64,000 nt of DNA from an uncultured Planctomycetaceae bacterium (GTDB taxonomy: Bacteria > Planctomycetota > Phycisphaerae > Sedimentisphaerales > UBA12454). Where the stretch lies: assembly GCA_964619675.1 (NCBI GenBank), contig CAZUEO010000003.1, forward strand, positions 56,186 to 120,185. Direction: 5' to 3'. Below the pieces are notes generated by a model. That model saw nothing but the letters and a program-made list of their open reading frames with translations, was not told where the DNA came from and ran no database searches. Positions 467-44,958 of the stretch are shown here, piece after piece (the stretch's first letter is position 1; every line of letters starts with the position of its first letter). The translations under genes were made by a program, and so were the position numbers.

Positions 467-1906
467 ATGAGCGGTGATGTAAGCGACAGGAAGAGACTTA
501 TATCAATAACTGGTGGTAACATCCGCAACAACCATATATACATCAGTGGTCATCACGACTTTTTCCCGAAAGAGTGTTACGGTTCCTCTGAAAGCAAAAA
601 AGGGCTGGGTAAACCTCTGACACTTTTACTAGAAGGATTAAATAAGGAAATTAAAACGGATATTTCTAATGGTACAAATGGAAAACCAAGAAACTTTTTT
701 CGAAAACGTAGCTGGGTAAGTAAATTCTTCAAACAATTTAATATTTGTGAAGGGGACGTTATAGCCATTGAGAAAATCGCTAAATATAAATATCGGGTAT
801 ACCCTTTCGAGACTAAAAATATTCGTGAAGGCTCTGAAATGCCATCGCATTGGTTGAAACCCCCGGCAAGCAAATTAAGAGTTATTGATCTTTTTGCCGG
901 TTGTGGCGGTTTTTCTTATGGTCTTAAAAAAGCCGGCTTTGAAAACCTATTGTCCATAGAATGGGATAAATCGTGTTGCGAAACTTTCAAAGCTAATATA
1001 AGCCCAAGAATACTTAATTGTGCTATTCAAAAAGTCGAAACTTTTCCCAAAACGGATTTACTTGTCGGTGGTCCTCCGTGTCAGGGTTTTAGTAATCTTG
1101 GAGAAAAACTCCCTAATGATCCACGAAGACAATTATGGAGGCATTTTTTAAGAGCTGTTAAAGATTCAAATCCTTTAATATTTATAATGGAAAATGTTCC
1201 GCCTATTCTCAAATCTGCAGAATATCAGGAAATTGTTAAACAAGCCCGCAAATTAGGCTATGAAGTCGAAGGACGCATTTTAAATACCGCATTTTACGGA
1301 GTACCCCAACAAAGAAAACGGGCGATAATTATAGGCAGCCGAATCGGCAAACCTGTTTTTCCTAAACCCACACATCGCGCACCAAACGACGGTAATTTAT
1401 ACGAATCTGATCTACCCATCTGGAAAACAGTTAAAGATGCTATAAGTGATATGCCCGCAAAACCCGATGGTAAAAACTGGCACATCAGTAGAAATCCGAC
1501 CGGATTATCAGAAAAAAGATATCGTTGCATTCCTGCAGGGGGTAATCGTTGGAATCTGCCGCTTCGCTTGATGCCGCCTTGTTGGAAACGCAAAACCAAA
1601 GGCGGAACCGATCTTTTCGGCCGTCTCTGGTGGAACAGGCCTTCCGTTACCATAAGAACAGAATTTTACAAGCCGGAAAAGGGCAGATATTTGCATCCTG
1701 TAGAGCACCGTCCGATTACTCACCGAGAGGCTGCAAGGTTACAGGGATTTGATGATGATTTTAAGTTTACCGGGAAAAAAATTGAAGTAGGAATACAGAT
1801 AGGTAATGCAGTTCCACCACCATTTGCATATCAAATCGGCTTAACCGTAAAAAAGGAAATTGAAAGATGGAGATATAAATATAATGTCGTCAAAAAAACT
1901 GCTTAA
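467..1906 (+). CDS. DNA (cytosine-5)-methyltransferase with an extra ~140-aa N-terminal domain
   Basis: Canonical m5C MTase motifs occur in order: DLFAGCGGFSYG (I), GGPPCQGFS (IV), ENV (VI), QQRKR (VIII), GNAVPPP (X). It is followed by an endonuclease gene and vsr. Confidence 0.9.
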   Translation: MSGDVSDRKRLISITGGNIRNNHIYISGHHDFFPKECYGSSESKKGLGKPLTLLLEGLNKEIKTDISNGTNGKPRNFFRKRSWVSKFFKQFNICEGDVIAIEKIAKYKYRVYPFETKNIREGSEMPSHWLKPPASKLRVIDLFAGCGGFSYGLKKAGFENLLSIEWDKSCCETFKANISPRILNCAIQKVETFPKTDLLVGGPPCQGFSNLGEKLPNDPRRQLWRHFLRAVKDSNPLIFIMENVPPILKSAEYQEIVKQARKLGYEVEGRILNTAFYGVPQQRKRAIIIGSRIGKPVFPKPTHRAPNDGNLYESDLPIWKTVKDAISDMPAKPDGKNWHISRNPTGLSEKRYRCIPAGGNRWNLPLRLMPPCWKRKTKGGTDLFGRLWWNRPSVTIRTEFYKPEKGRYLHPVEHRPITHREAARLQGFDDDFKFTGKKIEVGIQIGNAVPPPFAYQIGLTVKKEIERWRYKYNVVKKTA

Positions 1907-2825
1907 AAATTCAAGTGTAACGATTAACCTTTTAATCGTTGCAGCAGAATCGAAACTTGCCGAATACAAAAAGAAATATAAAGGTCTCTCATGGCGAGAG
2001 AAAATACTTCTGTTGGTAGAGCTTAATAAACCGGTAGCAAGCCTTGGAATATATTCTAATCCTGAAACGGCAAAAGTCGGAGCCAGAGAGAGATTACGAT
2101 TTTATTTATTAGAAAATGTCGGACAAGTAATTGAAGCAAAAGAATTAGAAATTGTTGCAGGGATTTCTGAATATGCCAGAAGAATGAGAGAATTAAGAAT
2201 TCAAGATGGTTATAAAATTATTACAGGCGCGAGCAGTTCGGAAGATTTCACTATTAAACTTAAACCTTCTCAATATATCCTACTCGATACAAAACCTGAC
2301 CGTAAAGCCGCCAGCAGATGGCATATAGCCAATAGAATCAGGAAAGAAAACCAAGGCGGCAGTAAAGCCCGTATATTAAAATATTTAAAGGGATTTGTCG
2401 GAGAGGTAATAACAAGTGAGGAATTATTATATGTTGCCAGAGCCAAAGAGTATGGTCGAAGAATTAGAGAATTGAGAACTGAAGAAGGTTATGCCATAGC
2501 AACCAATTTAACCGGCAGGCAGGATCTAAAAATGGGAGAGTATGTCCTCGAATCTCGTGAAAGAGTAGCAGAACCCCATGACCGCAAAATTCCTTTTGAG
2601 ATACAAAAAGAGGTCTATAAAAGAGATAAAAATTCATGCTGCCTTTGTAATTGGAATCACAAAAAATGGACAAAAGGAGACCCCAGAATACTGGAGCTCC
2701 ATCATATTCATGAGCACGTTAGGGGTGGTAAAAATTCGGCTGATAACATAATTCTTATCTGCAGCAAATGTCATGATAAAATACATGCAGGCAAATTAAA
2801 ACTTCCGCCAAATATTTTAGATTAA
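1884..2825 (+). CDS. HNH-family restriction endonuclease (putative R subunit of a type II system)
   Basis: The C-terminal HNH/zinc motif is CCLCNW...ELHHIHEHVRGG...NIILICSKCHDKIH. The gene overlaps the MTase gene end. ATG 1884 with GGAG upstream is preferred over TTG 1860. The N-terminal half contains two ~65-aa internal repeats. Confidence 0.7.
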   Translation: MSSKKLLKNSSVTINLLIVAAESKLAEYKKKYKGLSWREKILLLVELNKPVASLGIYSNPETAKVGARERLRFYLLENVGQVIEAKELEIVAGISEYARRMRELRIQDGYKIITGASSSEDFTIKLKPSQYILLDTKPDRKAASRWHIANRIRKENQGGSKARILKYLKGFVGEVITSEELLYVARAKEYGRRIRELRTEEGYAIATNLTGRQDLKMGEYVLESRERVAEPHDRKIPFEIQKEVYKRDKNSCCLCNWNHKKWTKGDPRILELHHIHEHVRGGKNSADNIILICSKCHDKIHAGKLKLPPNILD

Positions 2826-2830
2826 GCATT

Positions 2831-3241
2831 ATGGTCGATACCCTAACAAAGGAACAAAGGAAGTATTGCATGTCAGAAAACAAAGGTAAAGATACAAGTC
2901 CTGAATTATTTGTACGAAAATTAATCTCCTTACAAAAATTCCGTTACAGTTTACACGGAAAAGGTTTACCGGGTCGTCCTGATATAGTTTTTCTCAAGAG
3001 AAAAAAAGTTATTTTTATTAACGGCTGCTTCTGGCATCGCCACACCTGCAAAAAAGGCCGTTCAATACCCGCAACAAGAAAAAAATTCTGGAAGCAGAAA
3101 TTTAAAAGAACTATCGAACGAGATAAACAAAATTTAAAAGCCCTGAAAAAACTCGGCTGGAAGGTTTTGGTCATCTGGGAATGTCAAACCAAAAAATCCG
3201 AAAAAATTGTCGATAAAATCTCAACTTTCCTTAAAAAGTAA
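2831..3241 (+). CDS. vsr: Very short patch repair endonuclease Vsr
   Basis: DTSPELFVRKLI...GLPGRPDIVFLKRKKVIFINGCFWHRH matches Vsr hallmarks (DT.PE, G.PD, F..GCFWH.H). Vsr genes classically accompany m5C MTases. Confidence 0.85.
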   Translation: MVDTLTKEQRKYCMSENKGKDTSPELFVRKLISLQKFRYSLHGKGLPGRPDIVFLKRKKVIFINGCFWHRHTCKKGRSIPATRKKFWKQKFKRTIERDKQNLKALKKLGWKVLVIWECQTKKSEKIVDKISTFLKK

Positions 3242-3387
3242 AATTTTCCCCGCCCCAAAAATCGCTAAAACTTGCCCGCCGTAGCCTCGATACGGGGTTT
3301 ATTGCTTCAACTTTGACGATTTTTTAGGCAAAAATTCGGATTTGAAATCCTGCGGGCAAAGCAAAACAGTAAGTACGACGGATTCTT

Positions 3388-3505
3388 TTGCTTTAAGGCG
3401 TAATTGCGCAGCGGTAAGAAATTCAATTACAGGCCCGTTGAAGTTTAACTTCAGAAAGGGGCTGTTTGAATTTTACAGTGTTCGCAGAACACCGCCTTAA
3501 AGCAA
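3388..3505. repeat. 13-bp perfect inverted repeat (TTGCTTTAAGGCG / CGCCTTAAAGCAA) closing a 92-nt segment
   Basis: The arms lie at 3388-3400 and 3493-3505. The interior holds a further palindrome, TGAAGTTTAACTTCA. Confidence 0.7.
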
Positions 3506-3845
3506 TAGTGTCTCTGTGGACTCTGTGTTCTCTGTGGCTAATTTTTTCGTGTCTTGGTGCCTTTGTGGCTAATTAGAATCTGCGTAATCCGCGCAATCCG
3601 TGGTTAAATTCGTAGTTAATTTTTAATTTTGACTTTTGGTTTTAAGTTTTTAGCTTTAACTTTTAAACTCTTGTTTCTCTCCCTCACTTTGATTGATAAT
3701 TATCAACTATCGTTTTTCGCCTTAATTTTTTATTTTTTATCTGTCGTTTTTATTTTTAATTTTTGATATTTGATATTTTTTACTAGCGACTATCAACCAG
3801 CGACTGGCGACTGCATAATCCGCGGTTACTTTTCTTGTCAGGCCT
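3500..3845. repeat. Intergenic spacer built from degenerate heptanucleotide runs held in one 7-nt register
   Basis: Splitting into 7-mers gives runs such as tttttaa/ttttgac/ttttggt/tttaagt/ttttagc/tttaact/tttaaac and tactagc/gactatc/aaccagc/gactggc/gactgca. Modules are shared with 35464-35900. Confidence 0.7.
3595..3608. repeat. Right arm of the 14-bp inverted repeat bracketing the R-M cassette
   Basis: AATCCGTGGTTAAA is the reverse complement of 194-207. Confidence 0.8.
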
Positions 3846-4280
3846 GTGAACTATGGTTATAATCTTTTGCGTATGTTGCAGAAAAAGACAAATATGCTGC
3901 GGGTGAGGATTTTATCGCTTGTTTTGTTACTTATTTTGTCGCTAATGGGCTTTTGGATTTGGCGGTATTATCAAGGCTGGGCTGAAGGCTGGATAAGGTT
4001 TTATATTTCAGGTATCGTGTATGTGATGGTTTTATCTGTTGGCTTGTTTGCTGTTTTGCCGGGCGGCAGGAACGTTTGGCGGATACCTTTAATTGTTTTT
4101 ATTTTGACTTGTGGTCTTGAGTTTCTTCAGCTTTACAAGCCGCCGTTTTTGCAGGCTTTCAGGTCAACATTGATAGGTGCGGCTCTTATCGGAACGTGCT
4201 TCGTTTGGCTGCAATTTCCGTTTTACATAGCAGGGGCGTTATTCTCATATCTGCTCCTAAAATTCCTTTTTTCAGTCTAA
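3846..4280 (+). CDS. Small polytopic membrane protein, DUF2809-like
   Basis: There are four hydrophobic helices. GLEFLQLY...LIGAALIGTCFVW resembles the DUF2809 pattern. The start is uncertain (GTG 3846, ATG 3873 or 3894). Confidence 0.4.
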   Translation: MNYGYNLLRMLQKKTNMLRVRILSLVLLLILSLMGFWIWRYYQGWAEGWIRFYISGIVYVMVLSVGLFAVLPGGRNVWRIPLIVFILTCGLEFLQLYKPPFLQAFRSTLIGAALIGTCFVWLQFPFYIAGALFSYLLLKFLFSV

Positions 4281-4330
4281 AAACCTCATTATTAATACTG
4301 ATAAAGGCACTTTTCCTTGAGAAAATACTC

Positions 4331-4359
4331 TTGCTTTGTCGATAGAGCTTTAGTATAGT
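4331..4359 (+). promoter_or_regulatory. Sigma70-like promoter (TTGCTT - 17 nt - TATAGT)
   Basis: The -35 is at 4331-4336, the spacer is 17 nt, and the -10 is at 4354-4359. No ORF follows; the next annotated gene is the tRNA at 4620. Confidence 0.35.
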
Positions 4360-4365
4360 ACCTCG

Positions 4366-4520
4366 CAAGCCTTCTGTCAGAAGGGGTAGCAACACGTGTT
4401 TCGTAGCCTTTTAGGCGAAGGAGCATAGGAATATGGGGCCGGTAGTATCACGGCATCGCCGGCTCAAGCCTCAGACAGAGCCCAACCGGTCCGAACCTGA
4501 AACGGACACCGTGAAAGCAG
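4366..4520 (+). ncRNA. Unassigned structured region upstream of tRNA-Gln (candidate ncRNA or tRNA leader)
   Basis: It contains several local hairpins (CUUCU-GUC-AGAAG; GCCGG...CCGGC; GUCCG-AACCUGAAA-CGGAC) and the palindrome AACACGTGTT at 4391-4400. I recognise no known RNA family. Confidence 0.2.
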
Positions 4521-4619
4521 AGAAAATTGAAGATTGTAAGTTGAATATTGAAGATTTACTTTATCTTTTGTTTTTTCAATTAAATTTTCAATCTTAAATC
4601 TTGAATTTTCAATGATTTA

Positions 4620-4691
4620 TACCCGGTGGTGTAATTGGTAACACAGAGGCTTTTGGTGCCTCCATTCCAGGTTCGAGTCCTGGCCGGGTAG
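4620..4691 (+). tRNA. tRNA-Gln (anticodon UUG)
   Basis: A manual cloverleaf fits: acceptor TACCCGG/CCGGGTA, D stem GTGT/ACAC, anticodon stem GAGGC/GCCTC with loop TTTTGGT (anticodon TTG), T arm CCAGG-TTCGAGT-CCTGG, discriminator G. Length is 72 nt and CCA is not encoded. Confidence 0.9.
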
Positions 4692-4730
4692 GTAGAGAAA
4701 TTAAAAATAAAGTATAAAAAAAGATAAATT

Positions 4731-9599: not shown

Positions 9600-9675
9600 T
9601 TAAATGAAAAAGTGAACAGTTTACAGTTGACAATAAGCTGTCGGCTGTAGCAGATTTTATTGGAGACAGTTGAAT

Positions 9676-27091: not shown

Positions 27092-27278
27092 TTTTTTTAT
27101 TGGTTTTTAGTGGAATTTTGGGCGTTTTTAACCGTTAGCGACAGGTTTAGTTCCTTTTAGGTCGAAATTTTGGATTTTTTCGGATTTTTTCAAAAAGTGA
27201 GGGAGTTTTTACAAGTTTTTGAAGGTTTTTACAAAAACGAACGCTGATTTATCCCTTTAACTTCTTTTTACGCTTTTT
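27092..27278. other. Array of ~16 T-tracts phased at about one per helical turn (predicted intrinsically bent DNA)
   Basis: T-tract starts fall at 27092, 27104, 27116, 27125, 27146, 27155, 27168, 27175, 27185, 27206, 27216, 27226, 27248, 27256, 27265 and 27274. Mean spacing per slot is about 10.3 bp. Confidence 0.65.
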
Positions 27279-27317: not shown

Positions 27318-30300
27318 ATGGATACAATTACTACTGAAAGTATCATTAAGACTTCAAGTATAACTCCTTGGCCTAGAAAACTTTATCGTAATGCTGAAGA
27401 ATTCTGGAGGAATTCGCAAGGGTTTCATTACGCCTACCTTATATACCGCACTTTACGGGGCGACCATAAACGTACTTTTCAACCAGATGCCGTCTTTTAT
27501 GTTGGTAAATCGCCCGCGGCCTATCTGAAAAATGTGGATGAAATACGCGAAGAAGACGTAGGGCAATGGCAGCGATTTCTCTGGAACCAGGCCATTGTGC
27601 CAATGTTAATAATAAAATCCCCTATCAAAGTCAGAGTTTACACCGCTTATTCGCAACCCCAAAAATCAGATAGTACCGAAAAAATACAATCACTTCTTGA
27701 AGATACTGCTGACGCATTAAAACTTGATAAGTTGTGGACCGCTATCGAATCCGGCATGATTTACGAACTAAAACCTGAAGCTTTTAAAAGAGAACATGCA
27801 GTTGATCAATATTTACTTGATAATTTAAATGCGGCTGGCCAACTTTTAGCTAAAACACAACCAGGAAAAACCAAAGAAGCTAACGAGGAAAATCTGGAAT
27901 TTGCTCATCATTTTCTTACGCGTTTGTTGTTTGTTTGCTATCTTATTGAAAGAGGGATGATTGGCAAACATTTTAATGATTCTGAACATGAATTTTTGAA
28001 AGAACTTCGACCGGCTACTGATGAAAAAAAAGGTTATTTCCTTAAGGACCTTTTTGAAGATCTCAATACCTATTCCAAAAAACGAGAGGCTTTATGCCGT
28101 ATATTTGGTTATGTAAAACGGACATTTAATGGCAGTTTGTTTCCAGAAAGTATTGCAACAGAAAAGGACAGATATACGGATGATTTTATTAAAATAGTAG
28201 ATGATTTTCTTCACGGTCATGAACTTAGAACTGGGCAAAAGCTCTTAGGATTTTGGGCGTATGATTTTAGTGTAATTCCGATTGAAACTATCAGCGCAGT
28301 ATATGAGAGTTTTCTGGGAGAACAAGGAGAAATCAAAGAAGTTCTTGGAGGGAAAAATTCTAAGAGAACAACCGGAGCTTATTATACGCCGTTGCATTTG
28401 GTAGAACTGACCGTAGATATCGCTTTGGAAAAAATCAAAAATAAAAAGTCAATCCATAAACTCAAAATACTTGATCCGGCCTGTGGTAGCGGAGTCTTTC
28501 TTGTTTCATTATTTGGTCGAATGGCCGAGAGTCTTCGTCGTCAAGAAACTCAGACTAAAGGTATTAATTGGGCACGAAAACTATTACCGAAGTTACATCA
28601 GTTATACGGCATAGATATTAGCCAAACAGCTTGTCATATCACATGTTTCAGTCTTTATCTGGCTTTATTAGAGCAGCTTGAACCCAGTGATGTTGAGTAC
28701 CTCCACGAACATGATGAGAAACTCCCGCCTCTATTAGCAAATACAAGGCCGGATAGCTGGGATACGGTCTATCCTGGTAACTTATTTAATACTGAACTTT
28801 CTTTTAAAGAAAAAGATTTTGATATTGTTATCGGTAATCCACCATGGGTAAGCCGGGGAAATCAAAAAGATGAACATTTTCTTAAATGGCTGACTTCTAA
28901 AAAAAATACTGATATATATGGCCCTGAAAAACAAATTGCTCATGGCTTTATGTGGGAAGTTCCCAAATATCTTTCTGACTCTGGGATTGCTTGTCTTTTG
29001 CTGCCAACTACTGTATTGCTCAATAACCATACTAACCAGTTTCAAAAAGAATGGTTTAAATCTGTTACTGTTGAACGGGTTGTCAATTTTTCAGACCTTC
29101 GGTTTATTTTATTTAAAAGCGCAATACATCCGTGCGTTGCAATCAGTTTTAAGTCTGTAAAATCAAATCCTGAGAGTATTATCCGTTATGAATCTCCTAA
29201 AACAGATATTCGCAGCCAAAAAGGTGGCCCTGTTTATATTCGCGAGGAAGATACAACTTGCTTGTATTTGAAAGAAATTACATTTGCAGCAGCTAATGAT
29301 TATGCGCCTACCGTTTGGAAAACTCATTACTGGGGTTCTTGGCGGGATCAGAGACTCTTGTCGCGTTTAATGGATTTTAATAAACTTTCTGACTTGGCCG
29401 GCGAAATAGGAAAACATAAAAAATGGATTAAAGGACAGGGCATACAAGTTGGTGGGGGAGATCCAAACCCTGTATGGTGGAAACCTTCAACTTTGTATCT
29501 TGATTCCGAAGTAGATTTTGACTTGATAATTTGTAAAGATGATCTTATAACCATAAAACAAGCTGAAATACCCATTGATACTGTACATCGTCCTCGTGAT
29601 AAAAAATTGTTTATTGGGCCTAAAGTTCTTCTCGCAAAGGGAAGCCGAAGAGTTTTCTTTTGTAATCAAGAAGTTGTTTTCAGAGATACTTTCACGTCTA
29701 TAACAGGCACCGAAAAAGACACATCTCTTTTACGGTTTCTTGCGGTGGTTTTGAATTCGGATTTAGTTTATTATTATCTGTTTCACACCAATTCAAACTT
29801 AGGAATCTATCGCTCCCAAACGTATCCTAATGAGTTTTTATCAGTTCCGTTTTTTCTGCCAGAAAATGCGGTTGCTCCCGATAGGGCTAAGGAAATCGTA
29901 TCTATAGTCGCAAAACAGGTTGGAGAGTTTGAAAATAGTCTTAAAAATAAGAAATGGTTTGGTGAAGAACAAAAGAGAAAAGATAAGGCCAATAAAATTC
30001 GTATAAGACTTGAGCTATTAATTCGCGAATATTATAACGTAGATAAATATGAATCAATGCTTATTGATGACACCTTAAATTTGGCTGTCAAAAGTTTCCA
30101 CCCTAGAGAAAACACAGCAAAAGCAAAAATTCCAACTCTTGTGGATGTTAATGATGAACAGGCAAAAGAATATGTAAATACGCTTTGTGAAATGCTTAAT
30201 AATTTTGGCGAAGGAAGTAATTTCAAGGTCAATGGAGAAATCATAAAAGGGCAACCTTATTCTGTTGTCCAAATATCTTTGGCAGAAACAATTGATCGAA

Positions 30301-30536
30301 ATGTGCCTGTTTTAGATGCAAATAAAAAACTTGAGCAGACTTTCGAAAAAATGAAAACGCTCCTGCAGAATAAACAGGGGCGGTTTGTATTCTGCCAGAA
30401 CTTAAAAGTTTTTGACGGTGATAATCTTTATATCTTAAAACCTATGCAAATGCGGTTTTGGTCTCGCACAGCAGCCTTAAATGATGCAGATGAGATTGCC
30501 GGTGCTATTCTGAATTCGAGGGAGAAAAATAAATAA
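27318..30536 (+). CDS. Large gamma-class N6-adenine DNA methyltransferase with built-in specificity domain (PglX / MmeI-family-like architecture)
   Basis: GAYYTP (aa 353-358), ILDPACGSGVFL (motif I), DIVIGNPPW (motif IV, nt 28836-28847) and the TaqI_C/Eco57I-type LRFLAVVLNSDLVYYYLF are present. The N-terminal helical region has FLTRLLFVCYLIERG and YDFSVIPIETISAVYESFL. The gene is AT-rich. Confidence 0.8.
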   Translation: MDTITTESIIKTSSITPWPRKLYRNAEEFWRNSQGFHYAYLIYRTLRGDHKRTFQPDAVFYVGKSPAAYLKNVDEIREEDVGQWQRFLWNQAIVPMLIIKSPIKVRVYTAYSQPQKSDSTEKIQSLLEDTADALKLDKLWTAIESGMIYELKPEAFKREHAVDQYLLDNLNAAGQLLAKTQPGKTKEANEENLEFAHHFLTRLLFVCYLIERGMIGKHFNDSEHEFLKELRPATDEKKGYFLKDLFEDLNTYSKKREALCRIFGYVKRTFNGSLFPESIATEKDRYTDDFIKIVDDFLHGHELRTGQKLLGFWAYDFSVIPIETISAVYESFLGEQGEIKEVLGGKNSKRTTGAYYTPLHLVELTVDIALEKIKNKKSIHKLKILDPACGSGVFLVSLFGRMAESLRRQETQTKGINWARKLLPKLHQLYGIDISQTACHITCFSLYLALLEQLEPSDVEYLHEHDEKLPPLLANTRPDSWDTVYPGNLFNTELSFKEKDFDIVIGNPPWVSRGNQKDEHFLKWLTSKKNTDIYGPEKQIAHGFMWEVPKYLSDSGIACLLLPTTVLLNNHTNQFQKEWFKSVTVERVVNFSDLRFILFKSAIHPCVAISFKSVKSNPESIIRYESPKTDIRSQKGGPVYIREEDTTCLYLKEITFAAANDYAPTVWKTHYWGSWRDQRLLSRLMDFNKLSDLAGEIGKHKKWIKGQGIQVGGGDPNPVWWKPSTLYLDSEVDFDLIICKDDLITIKQAEIPIDTVHRPRDKKLFIGPKVLLAKGSRRVFFCNQEVVFRDTFTSITGTEKDTSLLRFLAVVLNSDLVYYYLFHTNSNLGIYRSQTYPNEFLSVPFFLPENAVAPDRAKEIVSIVAKQVGEFENSLKNKKWFGEEQKRKDKANKIRIRLELLIREYYNVDKYESMLIDDTLNLAVKSFHPRENTAKAKIPTLVDVNDEQAKEYVNTLCEMLNNFGEGSNFKVNGEIIKGQPYSVVQISLAETIDRNVPVLDANKKLEQTFEKMKTLLQNKQGRFVFCQNLKVFDGDNLYILKPMQMRFWSRTAALNDADEIAGAILNSREKNK

Positions 30537-31172
30537 ATGGCAACAGATGGCAATAAGGCTCTTTGGGCAGAAACATTCGACCCTGGCCAGATTCTAAAAG
30601 TTCTTCAACTTGTTCTTGATTCTTGGAGGTCTTTTAAAATCCCCTTAAAGCTATTGGAAGTACCCATCACACGAAAATTCTGCGCTCATCTTAGAAATAA
30701 TCGAGATAAATCAATTCATTTCTTTCGTATTGACTGGGAATCCACTGAACTTGATGATAAAGGCCAAGAACTAGGAAGGATTGATCTGAAGTTTTCCCAA
30801 GGTTATGACGAAAAAGTTTGTTTTTCCATTGAATGTAAACGCCTTAGGGTTAATTTCGATAGTGGGTTTGATTCATTAGCAAACGAATATGTAGAAGATG
30901 GAATGTATAGATACTTTAATGGCCAATATGCGACAGGGCTGGATAAAGGCGGAATGCTTGGTTACGTAATGGATGGTGAAGTAAATAAAGCTATTGAAAA
31001 CGTTCGCAAAGCGGTTGAAGGTCGCAGGCTTGATTTACATATGGAACAAGATGGCACTCTTTGCAACTGCTCTATATTAGCTTCCAAACAGGTAAAAGAA
31101 ACTTTTCATAATCATGGCCCTGAAAATAAATTTCATATTTATCATATTTTCCTTCCCGTAAAAGCTGCGTAA
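30537..31172 (+). CDS. Mrr-like PD-(D/E)xK nuclease-fold protein (putative partner endonuclease)
   Basis: GRID83LKF...CFSIE99CK101RL fits the D...(E)xK core. Its ATG directly abuts the TAA of the upstream MTase gene. Confidence 0.5.
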   Translation: MATDGNKALWAETFDPGQILKVLQLVLDSWRSFKIPLKLLEVPITRKFCAHLRNNRDKSIHFFRIDWESTELDDKGQELGRIDLKFSQGYDEKVCFSIECKRLRVNFDSGFDSLANEYVEDGMYRYFNGQYATGLDKGGMLGYVMDGEVNKAIENVRKAVEGRRLDLHMEQDGTLCNCSILASKQVKETFHNHGPENKFHIYHIFLPVKAA

Positions 31173-31370
31173 ATCCGTGTCTAAAAGAAAGCTTCCTTGT
31201 CGAAATTACGATGAGTAGAAAAGAAAATTGTCTGCATTGATAATGACCCACCCCCATTTATTGTATCATTATGAATTGGAGTATCCTGCGTTAATTAGTC
31301 CTTCCTCCCCCATTTGGCGACTTGCTTGATTTCTCCTTTGTCCATGCCCCATATTCTATTTCAGTTCTGC

Positions 31371-31904
31371 TCACCAGTATTGCAGCAGAAGCGTTGGAAG
31401 ACCGAGACCGATTGCGACCCCGTAGATATAATCAAACCAGACGACTCTCAGGCCGTTGGCGATGTAGATAGCAATAACCAGCGGCAGGCTTATTATTGCC
31501 AGCGGGTGAAGGGTGACTGCGGCCTTCTTGGCCTGCTGAAACAGCAGGTGTGCATCGCCGATGGACGGAAACGCGTGCATCCCTATGGAAATGCCCAGCC
31601 ACAGCAGGACATAATAAAACTTGTTCACCACGCCGAATATGCGCATTGGAATCAGCACCGGGAAGCAGATAATTATGCAGAGCAGTGAGTTAACGATAAA
31701 CGGCCCGACTGAAATAAGAAACGTCGTTGTAAAGTTGTTTGTCTCTTCGTGTACAACATATCCTGCAGGGTCGCCGAAGCGGAAAAAACAAAAATCCAAT
31801 ACCGCAACGCCTCTCAGCCGGCACAGCAGCATATGCGCAAATTCGTGCACAATCACGCCCGGGAAGGTTAAAACAGTTATAATATATCCCGGAATTAAAA
31901 ACAT
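31371..31904 (-). CDS. Membrane zinc metallopeptidase-like protein (DUF3267-like, HExxH)
   Basis: VIVHEFAHMLLCR (HExxH) is embedded in about 5 TM helices. Confidence 0.55.
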   Translation of the reverse strand: MFLIPGYIITVLTFPGVIVHEFAHMLLCRLRGVAVLDFCFFRFGDPAGYVVHEETNNFTTTFLISVGPFIVNSLLCIIICFPVLIPMRIFGVVNKFYYVLLWLGISIGMHAFPSIGDAHLLFQQAKKAAVTLHPLAIISLPLVIAIYIANGLRVVWFDYIYGVAIGLGLPTLLLQYW

Positions 31905-31906
31905 AC

Positions 31907-32833
31907 TTACTCCTTTGCCGGCTCTTTCCAGCCGTCGGGAAATCTTTTCTGAAACTCGCTGCGCGTGATAATCTCGCGGGAATAGAGACGATGAAGAATT
32001 CTCCGTTCGTATTCACTGAAATACGGGTCTGCTTTTGAAAGCGTTTTTGCCTTGTCCAGAATCTCGAGCGATTTTTTTCTGAACTGCTCGTCGCCTGTTA
32101 CGGCAAATTTGCATGCGTAGGCCGAGGCAACCTGACCGCAGTTGGTAACGTCATCGGGGTTTATGTTGTAATTTTCAATCGCCATGGCCAAAAATCGGTC
32201 GTAGTCTTTGTTGTCGAATGCCACGCCAATTTCTGCTGCTATTGCAAGCTGGTCCAGTGTTTCATTTAATCCCTGCGGCAGCGATGAACTCCGGCACGAG
32301 TTAATCACTTCCAGCGCCTCTGCGGGCCTGTCCTGCCCCAGCAGCAGAATCGACTGGTAAAGGGCTGCCATTGCGAGAAGTTCGCTGTTTTCCGGGACGT
32401 GCGCGGATGCCGAATCCATCAGTTCTGCGGCTTTTTCAAGGTCGTTTTTGTAAAAAGCCCTGACTGAACTTCTCATCTCGACGTAGGCCTGTATAAACCT
32501 TATATTCCAGACCAGTGCGCAAGCGACCAGGGCAAACATAATGAAAAGAAAAACCTTGACCCAGTGAGGAAAAGGACGGTGTCTGAAAAAAGTCTCGCAC
32601 TGCAGGCACACGGGCAGTCCTGCAAGCATAGGCAGATGCTGCTGGTTATGGTCTTTTCCACAGTTAAAGCATATTGTAGGGTCGATTTGCTGCTTAACAG
32701 ATTTGATGTCGATGTCTTTTTGCTCCGAGGCGGCTTGCTCGCCGCAGACCCTGCACAAGACGACAGCGTTTATCCTGAATGTCTCATTCATCGGAAATTG
32801 TTGGCCGCAATTTTCACACTTGACTGTCTGCAT
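31907..32833 (-). CDS. Zinc-ribbon / single-TM / helical-repeat protein
   Basis: There are three CxxC pairs (CENCGQ, CRVCGE, CFNCGK...CLQCE), one TM helix, and a TPR-like C-terminal half. It lies 2 nt upstream of the metallopeptidase gene. Confidence 0.5.
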   Translation of the reverse strand: MQTVKCENCGQQFPMNETFRINAVVLCRVCGEQAASEQKDIDIKSVKQQIDPTICFNCGKDHNQQHLPMLAGLPVCLQCETFFRHRPFPHWVKVFLFIMFALVACALVWNIRFIQAYVEMRSSVRAFYKNDLEKAAELMDSASAHVPENSELLAMAALYQSILLLGQDRPAEALEVINSCRSSSLPQGLNETLDQLAIAAEIGVAFDNKDYDRFLAMAIENYNINPDDVTNCGQVASAYACKFAVTGDEQFRKKSLEILDKAKTLSKADPYFSEYERRILHRLYSREIITRSEFQKRFPDGWKEPAKE

Positions 32834-32928
32834 TAGCCGAGTCCCTGAACCTTATTTACAATGGAATAATAGAGTTGTCACTAAAAAAAATCCTGATTTT
32901 AAATTTCCTTATGACTGTAAATTAATTC

Positions 32929-32957
32929 TTGACAATAGCCGATATGTATATTATACT
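32929..32957 (+). promoter_or_regulatory. Near-consensus sigma70-like promoter of ilvBN (TTGACA - 17 nt - TATACT)
   Basis: The -35 is at 32929-32934 and the -10 at 32952-32957. This leaves a ~195-nt leader before the ilvB ATG at 33160. Confidence 0.45.
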
Positions 32958-33159
32958 TGTTAAATTACAGGCTTGTCCGCTTTGAGGCGGAAAGTTGTCC
33001 CTGAGACACGCGTAGTGCTGTGATTATGGCGCTGCGGCAGGACGCAAATCCTGGTTCGACAGGCTGTGAGAGTTCGTTGCCTTACGGTCGGCCGGTCAGA
33101 AATGCCCAAAAGAGCCGCGGTTAGCTGGAATAACTGAATAGTTTATCAGGAGTAAAAAA

Positions 33160-34896
33160 ATGAAGAAAAATCCTTCACAGGACAGTTCCCGCCAAAGTCC
33201 ATCCGATTTTCCCATCAAGACCGGTGCTGAAATTATCGTCGAAACGTTGATTGAGCAGGGTGCCGATACAATTTTCGGTTATCCCGGCGGGGTTGTATTA
33301 CCCTTGTTTGACAGACTCTATGATGCGCCTATCAGGTTTATTATTCCTCGCCACGAACAAGGTGGCACCCATATGGCGGATGGCTACGCACGAGCAAGCG
33401 GTAAAGTCGGAGTTATTATTGTCACAAGTGGGCCGGGCGCGTGCAATCTTACTACAGGTATTGCAAATGCGATGATGGATTCTGTGCCGATAGTTGCGCT
33501 GACAGGACAGGTTCGAACAGAACTTATCGGCAACGATGCATTTCAAGAAGCCGACACAACCGGTATTACCAGGCCGATTACTAAGCATAATATGATTGTT
33601 AAAGATGTTAAAGACCTGCAACAGATGATTCGTGAGGCGTTCTATATCGCCAAAACCGGCCGGCCAGGGCCGGTGCTTATTGATATTCCTGTCGATATTG
33701 AAGTTGCCAAATGTCAGTTACAACCTCTAAAGGAAATCAGTCTGCCAGGCTATAAGCCTCCGCAGAAGGGCCATCTGCGCCAGATAAAAATGGCGGCACA
33801 GGCTATAGACAAATCTGACAAACCCGTGCTTTATGCCGGCGGCGGAGTTATTGCCGCCGATGCCGCTAAAGAACTGCACTCCTTTGCACAGAAAGCCAAT
33901 CTGCCTGTAACAACGACACTCCTTGGGCTCGGCAGCTACGACCAGAGCCGGCCGGAGTCGCTCGATATGCTGGGTATGCACGGCACAGCTTATGCCAATT
34001 TTGCAGTTCAGGAATGCGACCTGCTAATCGCGGTCGGTGCGCGTTTTGACGACAGGGTAACAGGCAAAGTCAAGACCTTTGCGCCTAATGCGAAAATCAT
34101 TCATATCGATATCGACCCGAGCAGCATCAGCAAAAATGTCGCTGTCAATATACCTGTCGTCGGCGATGCGAAGTTTATCCTTGCCGAGCTGGCAAAAGAA
34201 GTTAAACATAAGGAAAGAAAAGAATGGTTTGACAAAATCGCGGACTGGAAAAGACGTTACCCGCTGCGATACGACACGAGAAGTGCTGGTTTAAAGCCGC
34301 AATATGTTATTGAACAGCTTTGCGAGGCTGCAAAATCAGAGGCTATAGTTGTTACCGGCGTCGGTCAGCATCAGATGTGGACTGCCCAGTTTTATAAGCA
34401 TAGTAAGCCGAGGCACTTTATAACCTCTGGCGGGCTCGGCACTATGGGCTTCGGACTGCCTGCTGCGATAGGTGCTCAGGTTGCCAGGCCGGATGCTCTG
34501 GTTATCGCTATTGACGGCGACTGCAGCTTTAATATGACCCTTACCGAAATCAGTACAGCAGTCCAGTACGAATTGCCCATAAAAGTCTGCATCATCAATA
34601 ACGGTTATATGGGAATGGTCCGTCAGTGGCAGGAACTGTTTTACAACAAGAGATACTCGAAAACCCATATAGACAATCCGGAATTTGCCGTTGTTGCGCA
34701 GGCTCTTGGCGCAGTTGGAATTGCCGTTGAGAAAAAAAGCGAAGTCAAATCCGCTATCGCAAAAATGCTTGCGGAAAAGAAGCCCTGCATTGTCGATTTC
34801 AAAGTCGAACGCGAAGAAAACGTCTGGCCGATGGTCGCGGCAGGAAAGAGCCTGCATGAAATGGACGGACTCGATATCTTCGAAAGTATGGCATAG
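33160..34896 (+). CDS. ilvB: Acetolactate synthase large subunit
   Basis: The thiamine-PP enzyme has GYPGG, GPGACNL and the TPP motif GGLGTMGFGLPAAIGA...DGDCSFNM. Confidence 0.95.
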   Translation: MKKNPSQDSSRQSPSDFPIKTGAEIIVETLIEQGADTIFGYPGGVVLPLFDRLYDAPIRFIIPRHEQGGTHMADGYARASGKVGVIIVTSGPGACNLTTGIANAMMDSVPIVALTGQVRTELIGNDAFQEADTTGITRPITKHNMIVKDVKDLQQMIREAFYIAKTGRPGPVLIDIPVDIEVAKCQLQPLKEISLPGYKPPQKGHLRQIKMAAQAIDKSDKPVLYAGGGVIAADAAKELHSFAQKANLPVTTTLLGLGSYDQSRPESLDMLGMHGTAYANFAVQECDLLIAVGARFDDRVTGKVKTFAPNAKIIHIDIDPSSISKNVAVNIPVVGDAKFILAELAKEVKHKERKEWFDKIADWKRRYPLRYDTRSAGLKPQYVIEQLCEAAKSEAIVVTGVGQHQMWTAQFYKHSKPRHFITSGGLGTMGFGLPAAIGAQVARPDALVIAIDGDCSFNMTLTEISTAVQYELPIKVCIINNGYMGMVRQWQELFYNKRYSKTHIDNPEFAVVAQALGAVGIAVEKKSEVKSAIAKMLAEKKPCIVDFKVEREENVWPMVAAGKSLHEMDGLDIFESMA

Positions 34897-34900
34897 AGAA

Positions 34901-34938
34901 GTTATCAGTTATCAGTTATCAGTTATCGGTTATCGGTT
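34901..34938. repeat. Perfect heptanucleotide tandem array (GTTATCA)x3 (GTTATCG)x2 GTT
   Basis: It was read directly from the 66-nt ilvB-ilvN spacer. A related array lies at 35486-35514, after ilvN. Confidence 0.95.
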
Positions 34939-34962
34939 AAATTTTGCCGAAAGGGCAGAAAG

Positions 34963-35463
34963 ATGAAACATATAATAAGCGCATTGGTTCAGAACAAGCC
35001 CGGCGTGCTGGCTCACGTGGCAGGGATGTTCGCGGCAAGGGCCTTTAATATCGATTCACTCGCTGTTGGCAGAACCGACGACCCTGCTCTTAGCAGAATG
35101 ACGATAGTCGTTGTCGGAGACGATAAAGTGGTCGAGCAGGTCCGCAAACAGCTTGCAAAGGTTATAGATGTCGTAAAAGTGCAGGATTTCTCAGGCAGAG
35201 AAGTAATAGCACGGGACCTGATGTTAATATGCGTTCATATACCGCCTGAGAAACGGCCTGAGATACTTGCGCTTGTCGAGATGTTCAAGGCAAAGGTTGT
35301 CGATATAGGCCAGAGATTTGTTATGGTTGAAGTAGTCGGGCCGGAAGATAAAATCGAGGCCTTTGTCGAGGCCTGCAGGCCTTATGGCGTGAAAAATCTG
35401 GCGCGAACAGGTACAGTAGCGATGGGCAGATTCGATAGGCAGGAAGTCGCAGATAACGAATAA
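34963..35463 (+). CDS. ilvN: Acetolactate synthase small (regulatory) subunit
   Basis: The ACT domain begins HIISALVQNKPGVLAHVAGMFAARAFNIDSLAVG. Confidence 0.9.
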   Translation: MKHIISALVQNKPGVLAHVAGMFAARAFNIDSLAVGRTDDPALSRMTIVVVGDDKVVEQVRKQLAKVIDVVKVQDFSGREVIARDLMLICVHIPPEKRPEILALVEMFKAKVVDIGQRFVMVEVVGPEDKIEAFVEACRPYGVKNLARTGTVAMGRFDRQEVADNE

Positions 35464-35900
35464 GAACACAGAACTCAGAAGAAAAGTTATCAGCAACTCA
35501 GTTATCAGTTATCGGCAATTCACCACAGACCTGTCCCGAGCGCAGCCGAGGGAGCCACGGAGATGTGAAAAATTCCGAATTACAAAGCACGAATTCCAAA
35601 TCAATGTTGAATTACCGAAATTTAAAATTGAACGCTGCGATAATTAGTCGCCAGTTGCTGGTCGTTAGTCGCTAGTAAATAATATCAAAAATCAAATATA
35701 AAAATGACAGTTGCTGACGAGGGCTGCGATGAGGAACAGACAGAATTACGCAGTCCCTAAAGGACGGAGTAAAAATAAAAGATTACCGAACCGAAGGCAG
35801 CAACTGCAACCATCGCAACGCTACGCGAATGTTTTTTCAATAGAACCAACGGCCGCTAACTTTTCACCACAGAGAACTCAGAGAAAGAAGTAATTATAAA
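35464..35900. repeat. Heptanucleotide-register spacer sharing modules with 3500-3845
   Basis: Runs include aattccg/aattaca/aagcacg/aattcca/aatcaat and tcgccag/ttgctgg/tcgttag/tcgctag. Positions 35644-35710 match the reverse complement of 3741-3814 at roughly 90% with one 5-nt indel. Positions 35867-35883 match the reverse complement of 3521-3537 at 16 of 17. Confidence 0.7.
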
Positions 35901-35965
35901 AAAATAGGTGCGGGGTTTTCTTTTTCAGGTTTTCAACAGCCCCACTGTCCTTATTTATTTTGATT

Positions 35966-36373
35966 TTATTTTTTTCTTATTTCTTCAAGTGTGTCGTGAA
36001 TGCGAAAAATTACAACTAACCATTCGCAAGCTATACGAATACCAACCACATTTATTAGCCAAAAGAGAATAGCAATTGCCAATGTCAACAATTTTGAATG
36101 TGTAGTAGAATAATCAGAAGATGTTGCCCATAACAAAGCACCCAAACCGGTTATAGTACACCATACCGGGAAAATCACAATAATAAGTTTTGTTGTCAAC
36201 ATTACGCGAAAAGTCCAAAAATCTTTGGAGAGTTTACTGAGGCTATTCTCGTCATATATGTTTTTACCACTCGCAAGGAAAGATTGATTACACTTTGAGC
36301 ATTTTACTGTTTTACCCACATAAATATCAGGAACATCAAAGGTTATGATACACTGTGGACATTGAACTTTCAT
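35966..36373 (-). CDS. Zinc-ribbon plus DUF4282-like membrane protein
   Basis: MKVQCPQCIITFDVPD...VKCSKCNQSF is an MJ0042-type zinc ribbon. It is followed by two or three TM helices and R..CEWLVVIFRIHDTLEEI. An ATG with AAAGGAGAG upstream is preferred over TTG 36388. Confidence 0.55.
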   Translation of the reverse strand: MKVQCPQCIITFDVPDIYVGKTVKCSKCNQSFLASGKNIYDENSLSKLSKDFWTFRVMLTTKLIIVIFPVWCTITGLGALLWATSSDYSTTHSKLLTLAIAILFWLINVVGIRIACEWLVVIFRIHDTLEEIRKK

Positions 36374-36555
36374 ATTCTCTCCTTTCAAATCATAAAATAT
36401 TTTTTATACTGGTTTTGTATAAGAAGATGATATTTTAAAATATCATTCCTACGGTTGGATAAATTGTATCAAACAATAAATAACTACTCATTTTGTAGTA
36501 TTTCAAAATTTAACTGGATCCGTTGTTGCCCCTCAAGGAAACGGAGAAATTATAT

Positions 36556-36628
36556 CCTTAAATTCGGTGAAAAACAAGGGAAAATAGCGTAGAGCGGACA
36601 GCGTATAGCGTATAGGGGATAGGGATTA
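36556..36628. repeat. Direct repeat copy A (CCTTAAATT...AACAAGGGAAAATAGCGTAGAGCG...GGGGATAG)
   Basis: It aligns with 36813-36876, offset 257 bp. The tail is heptamer-periodic (gcgtaga/gcggaca/gcgtata/gcgtata/ggggata). Confidence 0.8.
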
Positions 36629-36629
36629 T

Positions 36630-36658
36630 TTGCAAATTTTCAGTCTATATCGTATAAT
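36630..36658 (+). promoter_or_regulatory. Near-consensus sigma70-like promoter (TTGCAA - 17 nt - TATAAT)
   Basis: The -35 is at 36630-36635 and the -10 at 36653-36658. No ORF follows. Confidence 0.45.
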
Positions 36659-36664
36659 ATATAT

Positions 36665-36763
36665 GTGAGCGGGTAATTCCTGCGGTGGGTGACTTGAGCA
36701 CCGGCGTGGACGCGTGTGCGGCTGGACTTAAGGGACATCGGCATTGCAGGCGCCGCTTTTTTT
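36665..36763 (+). ncRNA. Candidate ~100-nt small RNA
   Basis: It starts just after the promoter above. The 5' segment GCGG(36669-72)/CCUGC(36679-83) can pair with the 3' segment GCAGG(36746-50)/CCGC(36753-56), which is directly followed by T7 (36757-63). There is an internal hairpin GGUG-ACUUGAG-CACC. Confidence 0.3.
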
Positions 36764-36812
36764 ATGCGCTCAAATATTACAAATCTTCAATTCAATTCAG
36801 TATTTGCGATAG

Positions 36813-36876
36813 CCTTAAATTGGGCGGGAAACAAGGGAAAATAGCGTAGAGCGTATAGGGTTTAGGGGATAGATTA
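36813..36876. repeat. Direct repeat copy B
   Basis: See copy A. The two copies bracket the promoter/RNA/terminator unit. Confidence 0.8.
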
Positions 36877-36973
36877 CCGGCAACGGGTCCGTGAAATCTA
36901 TTAAAAAACAGATTTCTCCGCTTCCCCCCGCCTTCGCGGGGGTTCGGTCGAAATGACATTTCTACAAAGCAAT

Positions 36974-37921: not shown

Positions 37922-37992
37922 TTCCGCAACTCCTCGCAGCTTGCCCGTGAGATACGCAGTTATCTCAATTCGGAGCCAGCCGCATAATATAT

Positions 37993-38020
37993 ATTATATC
38001 CAGTTTTTTTTAGGATTCAA
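37993..38020 (-). promoter_or_regulatory. Sigma70-like promoter on the minus strand (TTGAAT - 16 nt - TATAAT)
   Basis: Reverse-complement reading places the -35 at 38015-38020 and the -10 at 37993-37998, about 70 nt upstream of the GTG at 37921. Confidence 0.4.
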
Positions 38021-39189: not shown

Positions 39190-39306
39190 ACTCCGTGTTG
39201 GCAGGGCTAACCGATAATAAATAAATTCACTTGCAAAAGAGGCAGTTTAGGGGTAAAAGCATACGAAATATGCGATAATCAATAATTGGATTAGGAGATT
39301 TTGAAA

Positions 39307-40308: not shown

Positions 40309-40343
40309 CAAGAAAATAAAAAATCAAAAATAAAAATTAAGGA

Positions 40344-44700: not shown

Positions 44701-44771
44701 TGTCAGTTTTACTTGCTGTGCTGCAGCAAAGAGCACGTAACCTCGGCGAAGGCGGCTAAATTTTATTTTTC

Positions 44772-44925: not shown

Positions 44926-44958
44926 AAAAGCAAATTAGCCGGAATTTCTTTATTTATC

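Follow-up and report, generated by a model that had tools for sequence, protein, structure and literature searches.

Heptanucleotide tandem arrays in the intergenic spacers of a Sedimentisphaerales genome and its relatives

Introduction

A 64,000-nt stretch of DNA from an uncultured planctomycete of the Sedimentisphaerales (contig CAZUEO010000003.1; hereafter the window, meaning this stretch at its full length) contains intergenic spacers in which related 7-nt units follow one another head to tail. An earlier note on this DNA held that the spacers are written in a single phase-locked heptanucleotide register and gave the short tandemly repeated repetitive (STRR) sequences of cyanobacteria as the closest precedent. 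The question raised by the locus is whether such a register exists and, failing that, what the repeated units are and how they came about. Head-to-tail tandem copies of 7 nt do occur in the window beyond chance, with unit length 7 over-represented and mainly in non-coding DNA. They take the form of discrete arrays, which are probably heptanucleotide microsatellites.

The period-7 signal of the window

Intergenic and coding DNA of the window were separated with a crude gene map consisting of the longest non-overlapping open reading frames (ORFs), and dinucleotide-preserving shuffles served as the null model. In the 6.9 kb of intergenic DNA, identity at a lag of 7 nt was 0.305 versus 0.265 in shuffled sequence (z=7.1); the harmonics at 14 and 21 nt reach z=4.2 and z=5.0, respectively. 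Coding DNA displays the usual 3-periodicity and a lag-7 deficit (z=-7.5). The intergenic excess over shuffles and over coding sequence that the earlier note anticipated is thus present, and at 3500-3845, the interval of that note, lag-7 identity reaches 0.454 against 0.309 in shuffles (z=6.5).

Ungapped lag-7 segments were scored at +1 per match and -2 per mismatch, with a cut-off score of at least 9 in the window and at least 12 in relatives. The spacers of the window (6.7 kb) hold ten such period-7 arrays where 0.12 are expected, and no more than two were found in any of 100 shuffles. Each of the other periods from 4 to 12 returned 0-2 arrays, and the 57 kb of coding DNA contain one period-7 array. 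Period 7 is also the most frequent period reported by Tandem Repeats Finder (TRF) in the window, with 17 rows, followed by period 9 with 12; the in-gene rows at 2460, 28430 and 49487 are at chance level. TRF arrays lie at nearly all of the places singled out in the earlier note, so that its claim of a tandem structure far above chance stands. An independent Logan assembly (L001) is 100% identical to the window over 31122-35801, and the arrays are therefore not assembly artefacts.

The register itself is another matter. Twelve discrete arrays account for 635 of the 6707 intergenic bases (9.5%), and when these are masked the intergenic lag-7 signal drops to z=1.4, leaving a broad excess at 8-10 and 21-23 nt that represents ordinary 10-11-bp helical periodicity. 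A spacer-wide register was rejected for this reason. Phase is held only inside contiguous arrays, as where the T-rich segment at 3747-3778 runs into the array at 3782-3812 at an offset of 35 nt, or five units. The spacer at 3500-3845, proposed as one continuous register, is period-7 over roughly 40% of its length, while 3512-3537 and 3577-3600 are period-9. Similarly, the proposed block at 35464-35900 is period-7 at 35485-35513 and 35645-35705, and the remainder is not periodic. The three weak units at 9612-9655 are not significant on their own.

Distribution in relatives and turnover at orthologous sites

The IlvC protein of the window (39307-40308) was used to scan GTDB genomes, which yielded 80 loci (L002-L081). 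Group A comprises the Sedimentisphaerales-like loci with IlvC identity of at least 77% (L002-L034 plus L050; 496 kb), while group B (L035-L081 minus L050; 720 kb) comprises those with identity of at most 68%, namely other Planctomycetota, Fibrobacteria, Desulfovibrionaceae and others. TRF period-7 arrays number 21.9 per 100 kb in the window, 9.5 in group A and 2.5 in group B, with other periods alike between groups. In group A spacers (70.9 kb), 19 ungapped period-7 arrays were found where 0.1 are expected, or 27 per 100 kb. Other periods from 4 to 13 gave 0-3 arrays each, and the harmonic at 14 gave 14. The spacers of group B (86.5 kb) contain three period-7 arrays (3.5 per 100 kb) and 0-2 at other periods. 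Because AT-rich group B spacers (L037, L040 and L045) have no arrays, composition is not the cause. The arrays are thus not confined to the window; confinement to it would, by the earlier note, have undone the proposal. Neither are they a trait of genomes of the Planctomycetes-Verrucomicrobia-Chlamydiae (PVC) type, since the loci of Pirellulales, Isosphaeraceae, Planctomycetaceae and further outgroups do not rise above baseline.

The distribution is patchy even within group A. Two close relatives, L003 and L005 (both 91% IlvC identity), have no intergenic array, and their ilvB-ilvN spacers are bare and only 20 nt long, whereas L002 (94%) and L004 (91%) have several arrays. About 10 of 26 orthologous ilvB-ilvN spacers hold a short-period array, and the units differ from one genome to the next. 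For example, the spacer is occupied by (AGTTATC)5.7 in the window, AAAAGTT/AAAAGTG in L002, ACTCGAT in L007, eleven ATTGATT/GTTGATT units in L022, AATGATT/ATTGATA in L017, and AAAGTNN-type units in L006, L027 and L031, while L004 and L016 have 9-nt arrays instead. The spacer after ilvC contains AAAATAA/AAAATCA units in the window, L017 and L022, and (TAGTCGC)8.5 in L002.

Variant units within an array tend to occur in blocks, such as four AGTTATC followed by two GGTTATC, five TAGGGTT followed by two TAGGGGA (L010), and four AACTGGT between AAATGGT units; some arrays also have a higher-order structure in the form of a period-14 alternation. Such variants read as the trace of stepwise local duplication. 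Comparisons between species point in the same direction as regards length. The array at 36584 and its orthologue in L004 differ by gaps of 8 and 7 columns, L004 being two units longer, and the second copy at 36841 differs from L004 by a 15-column gap. L017 and L022 are 73.5% identical over 3.2 kb and have an ATTGAT-type array in common, with about 4 versus about 11 units. The suggestion in the earlier note that heptamers were duplicated and then drifted fits both the block-wise variants and these roughly unit-step differences. Two of the sequences concerned have further features: the L010 array, (TAGGGTT)5(TAGGGGA)2 at 1290-1342, consists of the plant-type telomere unit TTTAGGG and lies in a 176-kb Phycisphaerae contig, and the window array at 36841-36870 terminates in the related AGGGTTTAGGGGATAG.

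Context, structure and copies of the arrays

Arrays are found at 5.6 per 10 kb in codirectional, 6.9 in convergent and 4.0 in divergent spacers, with no consistent strand. No preference of context is thus apparent, as would be expected of a mutational process, and the relation to strand and gene ends that the earlier note had raised did not emerge. The reading of arrays as promoter, terminator or leader elements was set aside because there is no positional or orientation preference.

An inverted partner within 300 nt occurs in 4 of 45 arrays, versus 0 of 45 in a complement control, and the hairpin was accordingly rejected as the general form of an array. The partnered arrays (4514-4618, 38378-38451, the L027 spacer and the 9-mer spacer of L004) fold better than shuffles, with z from -2.2 to -4.9; direct arrays are unstructured as RNA. 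An Rfam scan identified only tRNA-Gln, with no match at E<=1 in 3242-4730 or 35464-38526.

Stop trinucleotides (TAA, TAG or TGA, read cyclically) occur in 16 of 25 array units in sense (64%) and 15 of 25 in antisense (60%), as opposed to fractions of 0.39 and 0.31, respectively, among random 7-mers from spacers, an enrichment that is modest and post hoc. A stop is present on at least one strand in 40 of the 45 arrays of the window and group A. As 7 is coprime with 3, stop-bearing arrays close all three reading frames within 21 nt.

Some arrays recur at unrelated places. The T-rich array and the ACTAGCG array, the latter being the TAGTCGC family seen from the opposite strand, together form a composite block of 59-65 nt. 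One copy is at 3754-3812 and the other, in opposite orientation, at 35646-35704, with 88% complementarity over 59 nt and a likeness that ends at the block boundaries. The array at 3725-3782 is the left half of this block, the inverted copy of which extends over 35646-35710. In addition, 38474-38510 matches the reverse complement of 4582-4618 (37 nt, 84%). Unit families likewise reappear at non-orthologous sites in relatives, as seen with GCGACTA/TAGTCGC at two sites in L002 and in L016.

Unit families in metagenomes and viral contigs

An exact scan for (TAGTCGC)3 returned at least 120 metagenome contigs, with a GC content of 29-73% among the matches listed. The flanks of the 122 (TAGTCGC)n arrays among those matches are unrelated, and 39 of the 122 lie within 150 nt of a contig end. 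One contig with 11 TAGTCGC units (L107) encodes a BamA protein 72-76% identical to Gallionellales proteins, so the unit also occurs in Betaproteobacteria. With the seed family excluded, the (TAGTCGC)3 contigs among the matches listed contain 95 other period-7 arrays (15.6 per 100 kb), compared with at most 2.3 per 100 kb for each of the periods 4-6 and 8-13. Genomes in which one heptamer has expanded thus expand many, and the specificity of the process lies in its period, not in any one sequence. In the IMG/VR collection, (TAACTGA)3 was found in 107 stretches versus 7 for the composition-matched permutation (TACAGAT)3, and (TAGTCGC)3 in 5 versus 1 for (TGCTACG)3; (TGAAGAT)3 was found in 13.

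Comparison with known heptamer systems

Heptanucleotides are reported to be the most abundant class of long simple sequence repeats (LSSRs) in most prokaryotes rich in simple sequence repeats, and the cause proposed for them is polymerase slippage, tied to the length of DNA held in the polymerase (Mrazek et al. 2007, as presented in PMC4679880 and PMC4692102). As that survey is described there, LSSRs resemble the present arrays in that tandem 7-nt units are over-represented, essentially intergenic, sporadic by phylogeny, and ascribed to slippage. Unlike them, the present arrays run to only 3-8 units, are for the most part degenerate and comprise many unit families per 64 kb, and the Sedimentisphaerales (Planctomycetota) do not figure among the LSSR-rich taxa of the literature searched.

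A closer precedent exists in the direct repeats of TAACTGA known from Beggiatoaceae, Thiocystis, 15 cyanobacteria and 5 Bacteroidetes; in Microcystis, Gramella and Elizabethkingia, other heptamers occur among them (MacGregor 2015; PMC4679880). In those organisms close relatives have shorter, repeat-free spacers, contigs end within repeats, and most indels that separate Cyanothece strains come in steps of 7 nt (PMC4679880). Read on the opposite strand, (AGTTATC)n becomes (TAACTGA)n, and the window accordingly has tandem TAACTGA on its minus strand at 34905 (three perfect units, about 5.7 with variants) and 35498 (two units). The unit is thus identical at 34900-34939 and 35498-35513, and the further likenesses are also there: an intergenic position, admixture of other heptamers, array-free relatives with shorter spacers, and contig breaks at arrays. 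In BOGUAY (Beggiatoa), TAACTGA makes up almost the whole set of repeats, which point forward and closely precede start codons, and related heptamers are rare, whereas the window has at least six other unit families, and its TAACTGA array is reversed relative to ilvN and directly follows the ilvB stop codon.

The STRR sequences share with the present arrays a tandem, non-coding, heptameric nature and several unit families per genome, but they belong to a different phylum. Their units (STRR1-3: CCCCAGT, TTGGTCA and CAACAGT) have no tandem occurrence in the window or the 80 related loci. A cyanobacterial host is not indicated either, as IlvC has its nearest named homologues, at 84-91% identity, in metagenome-assembled genomes (MAGs) labelled Planctomycetes, Phycisphaerae or Sedimentisphaerales. 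The STRR precedent drawn in the earlier note is apt as an analogy at the level of mechanism; it is not the nearest one, since the TAACTGA repeat itself is present.

The GGGAATC repeats of Xanthomonas occur as inverted pairs and as arrays inside operons, and vary between species (Rehm et al. 2015; PMC4692102). These and the GGGGAYT repeats of Nostoc are like the present arrays in being intergenic, sometimes within operons, sometimes as inverted pairs that could form stem-loops, and variable in length and sequence from one related species to another at a given intergenic site, but their units are G-rich and form G-quadruplexes (PMC4692102), in contrast to units here that are mostly A/T-rich or mixed. 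GGGAATC and GGGGATT are never tandem in these sequences, and the sole array with G-runs (36612-36626) has two of the four that are needed. Membership in the STRR or G-quadruplex classes was dismissed because the respective units are absent in tandem.

Finally, repetitive extragenic palindromes (REPs), miniature inverted-repeat transposable elements (MITEs) and intervening sequences (IVSs) of 23S rRNA genes have a counterpart in the subset of arrays that form imperfect spacer hairpins, and in one relative with an IVS-type ORF between inverted arrays. However, some 90% of arrays are plain direct repeats with no partner, and there are no conserved termini or flanks. A REP- or MITE-like palindromic class was rejected on these grounds (4 of 45 partnered, flanks not conserved) and fits only 4514-4618 and 38378-38451.

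Origin of the arrays

Any account of the arrays has to accommodate their period-7 specificity, discreteness, turnover, distribution and shared unit families. The one favoured here, and considered probable, is that they are heptanucleotide microsatellites of the 5-11-nt LSSR or STRR-like class, born and lost in 7-nt steps where indels are harmless. Named members of this class are the cyanobacterial STRR, the GGGAATC repeats of Xanthomonas and the TAACTGA repeats. We infer that slippage is the mechanism and that the arrays are mostly neutral. A lineage-specific process would add and remove DNA in 7-nt steps wherever a frameshift does no harm, including spacers inside operons, most likely through strand slippage or misaligned re-annealing in replication or repair that evades mismatch repair. 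An array would arise from a seed, expand, accumulate point mutations, be partially re-homogenised by slippage, and decay, the outcome being runs of related heptamers that share one phase. Occasionally, a block may be copied to another locus, or an inverted duplication may give rise to a hairpin. Most arrays would probably be tolerated by-products that only lengthen spacers, and some may secondarily act as unstructured leaders, or as RNase III or terminator-like stems. A process of this kind would explain why the arrays keep to non-coding DNA without preferring any context, why units turn over at fixed sites, and why variants come in blocks and lengths differ by unit steps.

Several observations weigh against this account. 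Smooth slippage, in which escape from mismatch repair is set against the cost of melting, would predict a broad peak at 5-9 nt, and what is seen in group B and the TAGTCGC contigs is a spike at 7 only over a flat baseline, which suggests a discrete determinant beyond slippage alone. The on/off pattern among close relatives is not accounted for by a microsatellite process. Particular units (TAACTGA and TAGTCGC) are favoured across phyla, and array units are modestly richer in stop trinucleotides than random spacer 7-mers. The presence of the composite block at two loci indicates that not all arrays arose in situ, and selection could be behind the retention of AAAATCA arrays after ilvC in the window, L017 and L022 across deep divergence.

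The same AAAATCA-type arrays are among the points that favour a cis-regulatory role, in which arrays would act as multimeric mRNA or DNA sites for S1, a cold-shock or a CsrA-like protein and tune translation or coupling of the gene downstream. In operons, many arrays do separate a stop codon from the ribosome-binding site that follows (ilvB-ilvN, after ilvC, rpsR-rplI), the lack of RNA structure in direct arrays would suit such sites, the ilvB-ilvN spacer is occupied in over a third of its orthologues, the favoured units are common to several phyla, and regulation was MacGregor's own proposal for TAACTGA (PMC4679880). Nevertheless, orthologous spacers hold unrelated units and some close relatives hold none; convergent spacers, which do not lead into a gene, are just as dense in arrays, and orientation is not consistent. 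The TAACTGA array of the window is reversed relative to ilvN, unlike in BOGUAY, and most arrays are degenerate, with 64-85% matches. A cis-regulatory role is held to be unlikely.

A similarly low probability is assigned to an origin from mobile or processed elements, whether MITE- or REP-like hairpins, IVS-like elements with a four-helix-bundle ORF, or 7-bp target-site duplications from insertion and excision, in which the 7 would be the width of an enzyme's staggered cut. A fixed stagger would fit the sharp spike at 7, and a mobile element would fit both the sporadic phylogenetic distribution and the composite block at two loci in opposite orientation, as would the hairpin arrays of 4514-4618, 38378-38451, L004 and L027 with their favourable folds (z -2.2 to -4.9). 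In L007 (8643-9111), a TIGR02436 four-helix-bundle (23S-IVS-type) ORF sits in the ilvB-ilvN spacer and is flanked by inverted ACTCGAT arrays, an arrangement with a parallel in the Coxiella 23S IVS, whose RNase III site has tandem GACAGAT heptamers that vary in copy number between strains (PMC4990558). Compared with L014 and L015, the ilvB-ilvN spacer of L023 contains a 161-nt insertion bordered by CTTAGAA, 7 bp of the empty site that are present as a direct duplication; the insertion has 11-bp inverted repeats near its ends, TAAATAAATTA and TAATTTATTTA. Against this stand the rarity of inverted partners within 300 nt (4 of 45 arrays), the non-conserved flanks of the 122 (TAGTCGC)n arrays among the matches listed, and the finding of one four-helix-bundle ORF in 1.2 Mb and one example of a target-site duplication. 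No transposase is adjacent to the arrays of the window. To our knowledge, excision footprints of cut-and-paste elements are not an established source of tandem arrays in bacteria.

The spike at 7 only, the on/off distribution, and the occurrence of the same units in distant phyla and (pro)viral contigs could together signal a dedicated, horizontally transferable activity that makes 7-bp tandem duplications, with the arrays then being used as modules. Candidates would be an enzyme that cuts with a 7-nt stagger, the breaks then being filled in and religated, or else a transposase or an element of the IVS type that leaves 7-bp duplications behind; this proposal and its candidates are, on balance, quite improbable. 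Were it true, inverted arrays would be RNase III stems and direct arrays would be unstructured, stop-rich spacers.

The idea that the arrays reflect chance, the composition of AT-rich spacers or misassembly is scarcely tenable: several arrays are indeed short and A/T-rich, and 9612-9655 and the in-gene TRF rows are at chance level, but the lag-7 and array counts against shuffles (10 observed versus 0.12) refute it, as do the array-free AT-rich outgroup spacers, the identical independent assembly, and arrays conserved at orthologous positions of other genomes.

Individual arrays and neighbouring features

The arrays of the window are listed in Table 1.

Table 1. Tandem arrays of the window, with their units and the basis for each call.
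Position	Array	Strand	Basis and remarks
3512-3537; 3577-3600	9-nt arrays, not heptamers: CTCTGTGGA (3512-3537), related cgtgtcttggtgcctttgtggc, AATCCGCGC (3577-3600)		TRF period 9
3616-3666	Degenerate T-rich array TTAATTT/TGACTTT/AAGTTTT, ~7.6 units		TRF period 7, 71% matches
3725-3782	T-rich array ATTTTTT/TTTTGAT/ATTTGAT, ~8 units		TRF; lag-7 segment 3747-3778, score 16
3782-3812	ACTAGCG/ACCAGCG/ACTGGCG array, 4.4 units	+	TRF
4514-4618	Hairpin: TGAAGAT-type array (4522-4556) and inverted partner (4580-4606)		TRF
9612-9655	GTGAACA GTTTACA GTTGACA, three weak units		rpsR-rplI spacer; below TRF score 30
34900-34939	(AGTTATC)x5.7, cleanest array	- (as TAACTGA)	TRF score 66, 96% matches
35485-35513	Second AGTTATC/TAACTGA-family array	-	TRF; directly downstream of ilvN; TAACTGAx2
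35645-35710	TAGTCGC array (35645-35676) and ATCAAAA array (35684-35705)		TRF; inverted copy of 3741-3812
36584-36626	AGCGTAG/AGCGTAT/AGGGGAT array		TRF 36584-36615; directly upstream of promoter-like TTGCAA-17-TATAAT
36841-36870	Second copy of AGCGTAG-type array		Within 64-nt direct repeat 36552-36615 / 36809-36872
38378-38451	Hairpin: AATCGAG-type array and inverted partner		TRF 38378-38414
38474-38510	TGAAAAT/TGAAGAT array		TRF 38478-38509; 17 nt upstream of HNH_3-AP2 gene
40313-40340	A-rich array AAAATAA AAAATCA AAAATAA AAATTAA	+	TRF; fills 51-nt spacer after ilvC

The array at 3616-3666, which includes an ungapped lag-7 segment at 3616-3657 (score 11), sits in the 604-nt spacer between vsr and a DUF2809 gene. 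Further on in this region, a sigma-70-like promoter (TTGTCA-17-TATAAT, 3835-3863) was returned by a promoter scan after the ACTAGCG array. Directly upstream of this heptamer-rich spacer, 467-3241 holds a cassette encoding a Dcm-type C5 methyltransferase, an HNH protein and a Vsr endonuclease. The 9-nt CTNTGTGG family reappears in relatives, often as hairpins, for example in L004 and L022. More generally, an 8-9-nt repeat family (CTCTGTGG / CTTTGTGCC / CTTGGTGCC), separate from the heptamers, is common to Sedimentisphaerales-like genomes, with sites at 3512-3570 and 35866-35885 (reverse complement) of the window, in the ilvB-ilvN spacer of L004, and after ilvC in L017 and L022. Members often form strong hairpins, the fold of the L004 spacer reaching -28.2 kcal/mol (z=-4.9), and the family looks REP-like.

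The hairpin at 4514-4618 lies directly upstream of tRNA-Gln (4620-4691) and has 39-nt arms that are 74% complementary, with an RNA fold of -21.5 kcal/mol (z=-2.2). That at 38378-38451 has 25-nt arms, 80% complementary, and folds at -28 kcal/mol (z=-3.8). The array at 34900-34939 occupies the ilvB-ilvN operon spacer, beginning 3 nt after the ilvB stop codon, with the ilvN start codon 23 nt on; its RNA is unstructured. The second array of the same family, at 35485-35513, matches 34899-34936 at 87-91% by blastn.

Between ilvN and ilvC lies a 3.8-kb insertion (35464-39300), which contains a Zn-ribbon/DUF4282 gene, a 315-aa ORF that matched no family, and a homing-endonuclease-like HNH_3+AP2 gene. 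The ilvN-ilvC distance is about 50 nt in L003 and L005, while in L004 this site is occupied by 8.9 kb of inserted DNA, with a candidate small-RNA cassette and the HNH-AP2 gene in common. This cassette is found at 36632-36775 (+) of the window and at 3820-3972 and 4075-4222 of L004. It consists of the TTGCAA-17-TATAAT promoter-like site, a putative RNA, some 100 nt in length, that folds into a long hairpin, and a GC stem with a T-run. The two tandem cassettes of L004 have conserved ends (58 nt, 93% identity) and divergent middles. In a consensus fold of the three sequences, 6 pairs are maintained through double changes. No Rfam match was found for the cassette, and each copy is preceded by CCTTAAATTGG and a short-period array.

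Other repeats of the window lie apart from the heptamers. A direct repeat of about 176 nt (44762-44935 and 44949-45106) is located upstream of nrdR (43832-44323, minus strand). Each copy contains a hairpin, CCTGCCCTGG...CCCCCCAAGGCAGG, is 74-82% conserved in L002, L003 and L004, and has no Rfam match at gathering score. A 904-aa ORF at 61085-63799 (-), with no Pfam match, is based on a 153-nt (51-aa) unit repeated about 5.5 times in tandem, on which a higher order of 306 nt is superimposed. Lastly, a 1072-aa MmeI/Eco57I-like restriction-modification fusion is encoded at 27318-30536, and the spacer upstream of it (27094-27234) contains three 10-nt arrays, TTTTTAGTGG, TTTCGGATTT and AGTTTTTACA; these are phased T-tracts near the helical repeat, unlike the heptamers.

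Significance

The Sedimentisphaerales arrays are a new taxonomic instance of the heptamer repeats known from cyanobacteria, Xanthomonas, Beggiatoa and Bacteroidetes, and do not amount to a novel mode of composing intergenic DNA. The literature search found no paper connecting heptamer repeats to Phycisphaerae or Sedimentisphaera, in keeping with the earlier note's view that the pattern had not been described for this group. The arrays account for spacer-length variation and contig breaks in these MAGs, and by themselves reveal no new mechanism. They do extend the TAACTGA family, together with a second family, TAGTCGC, to new phyla, and they add a Planctomycetota lineage with both array-rich and array-free close relatives to the few heptamer-rich groups, and so provide contrasts for profiling the presence of genes. 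Why 7-base units expand is a question that has stood since the STRR sequences (1990) and the 2007 survey of prokaryotic simple repeats. If a dedicated activity were responsible, the Sedimentisphaerales would provide a new, independent lineage in which the responsible gene might be found by phylogenetic profiling.

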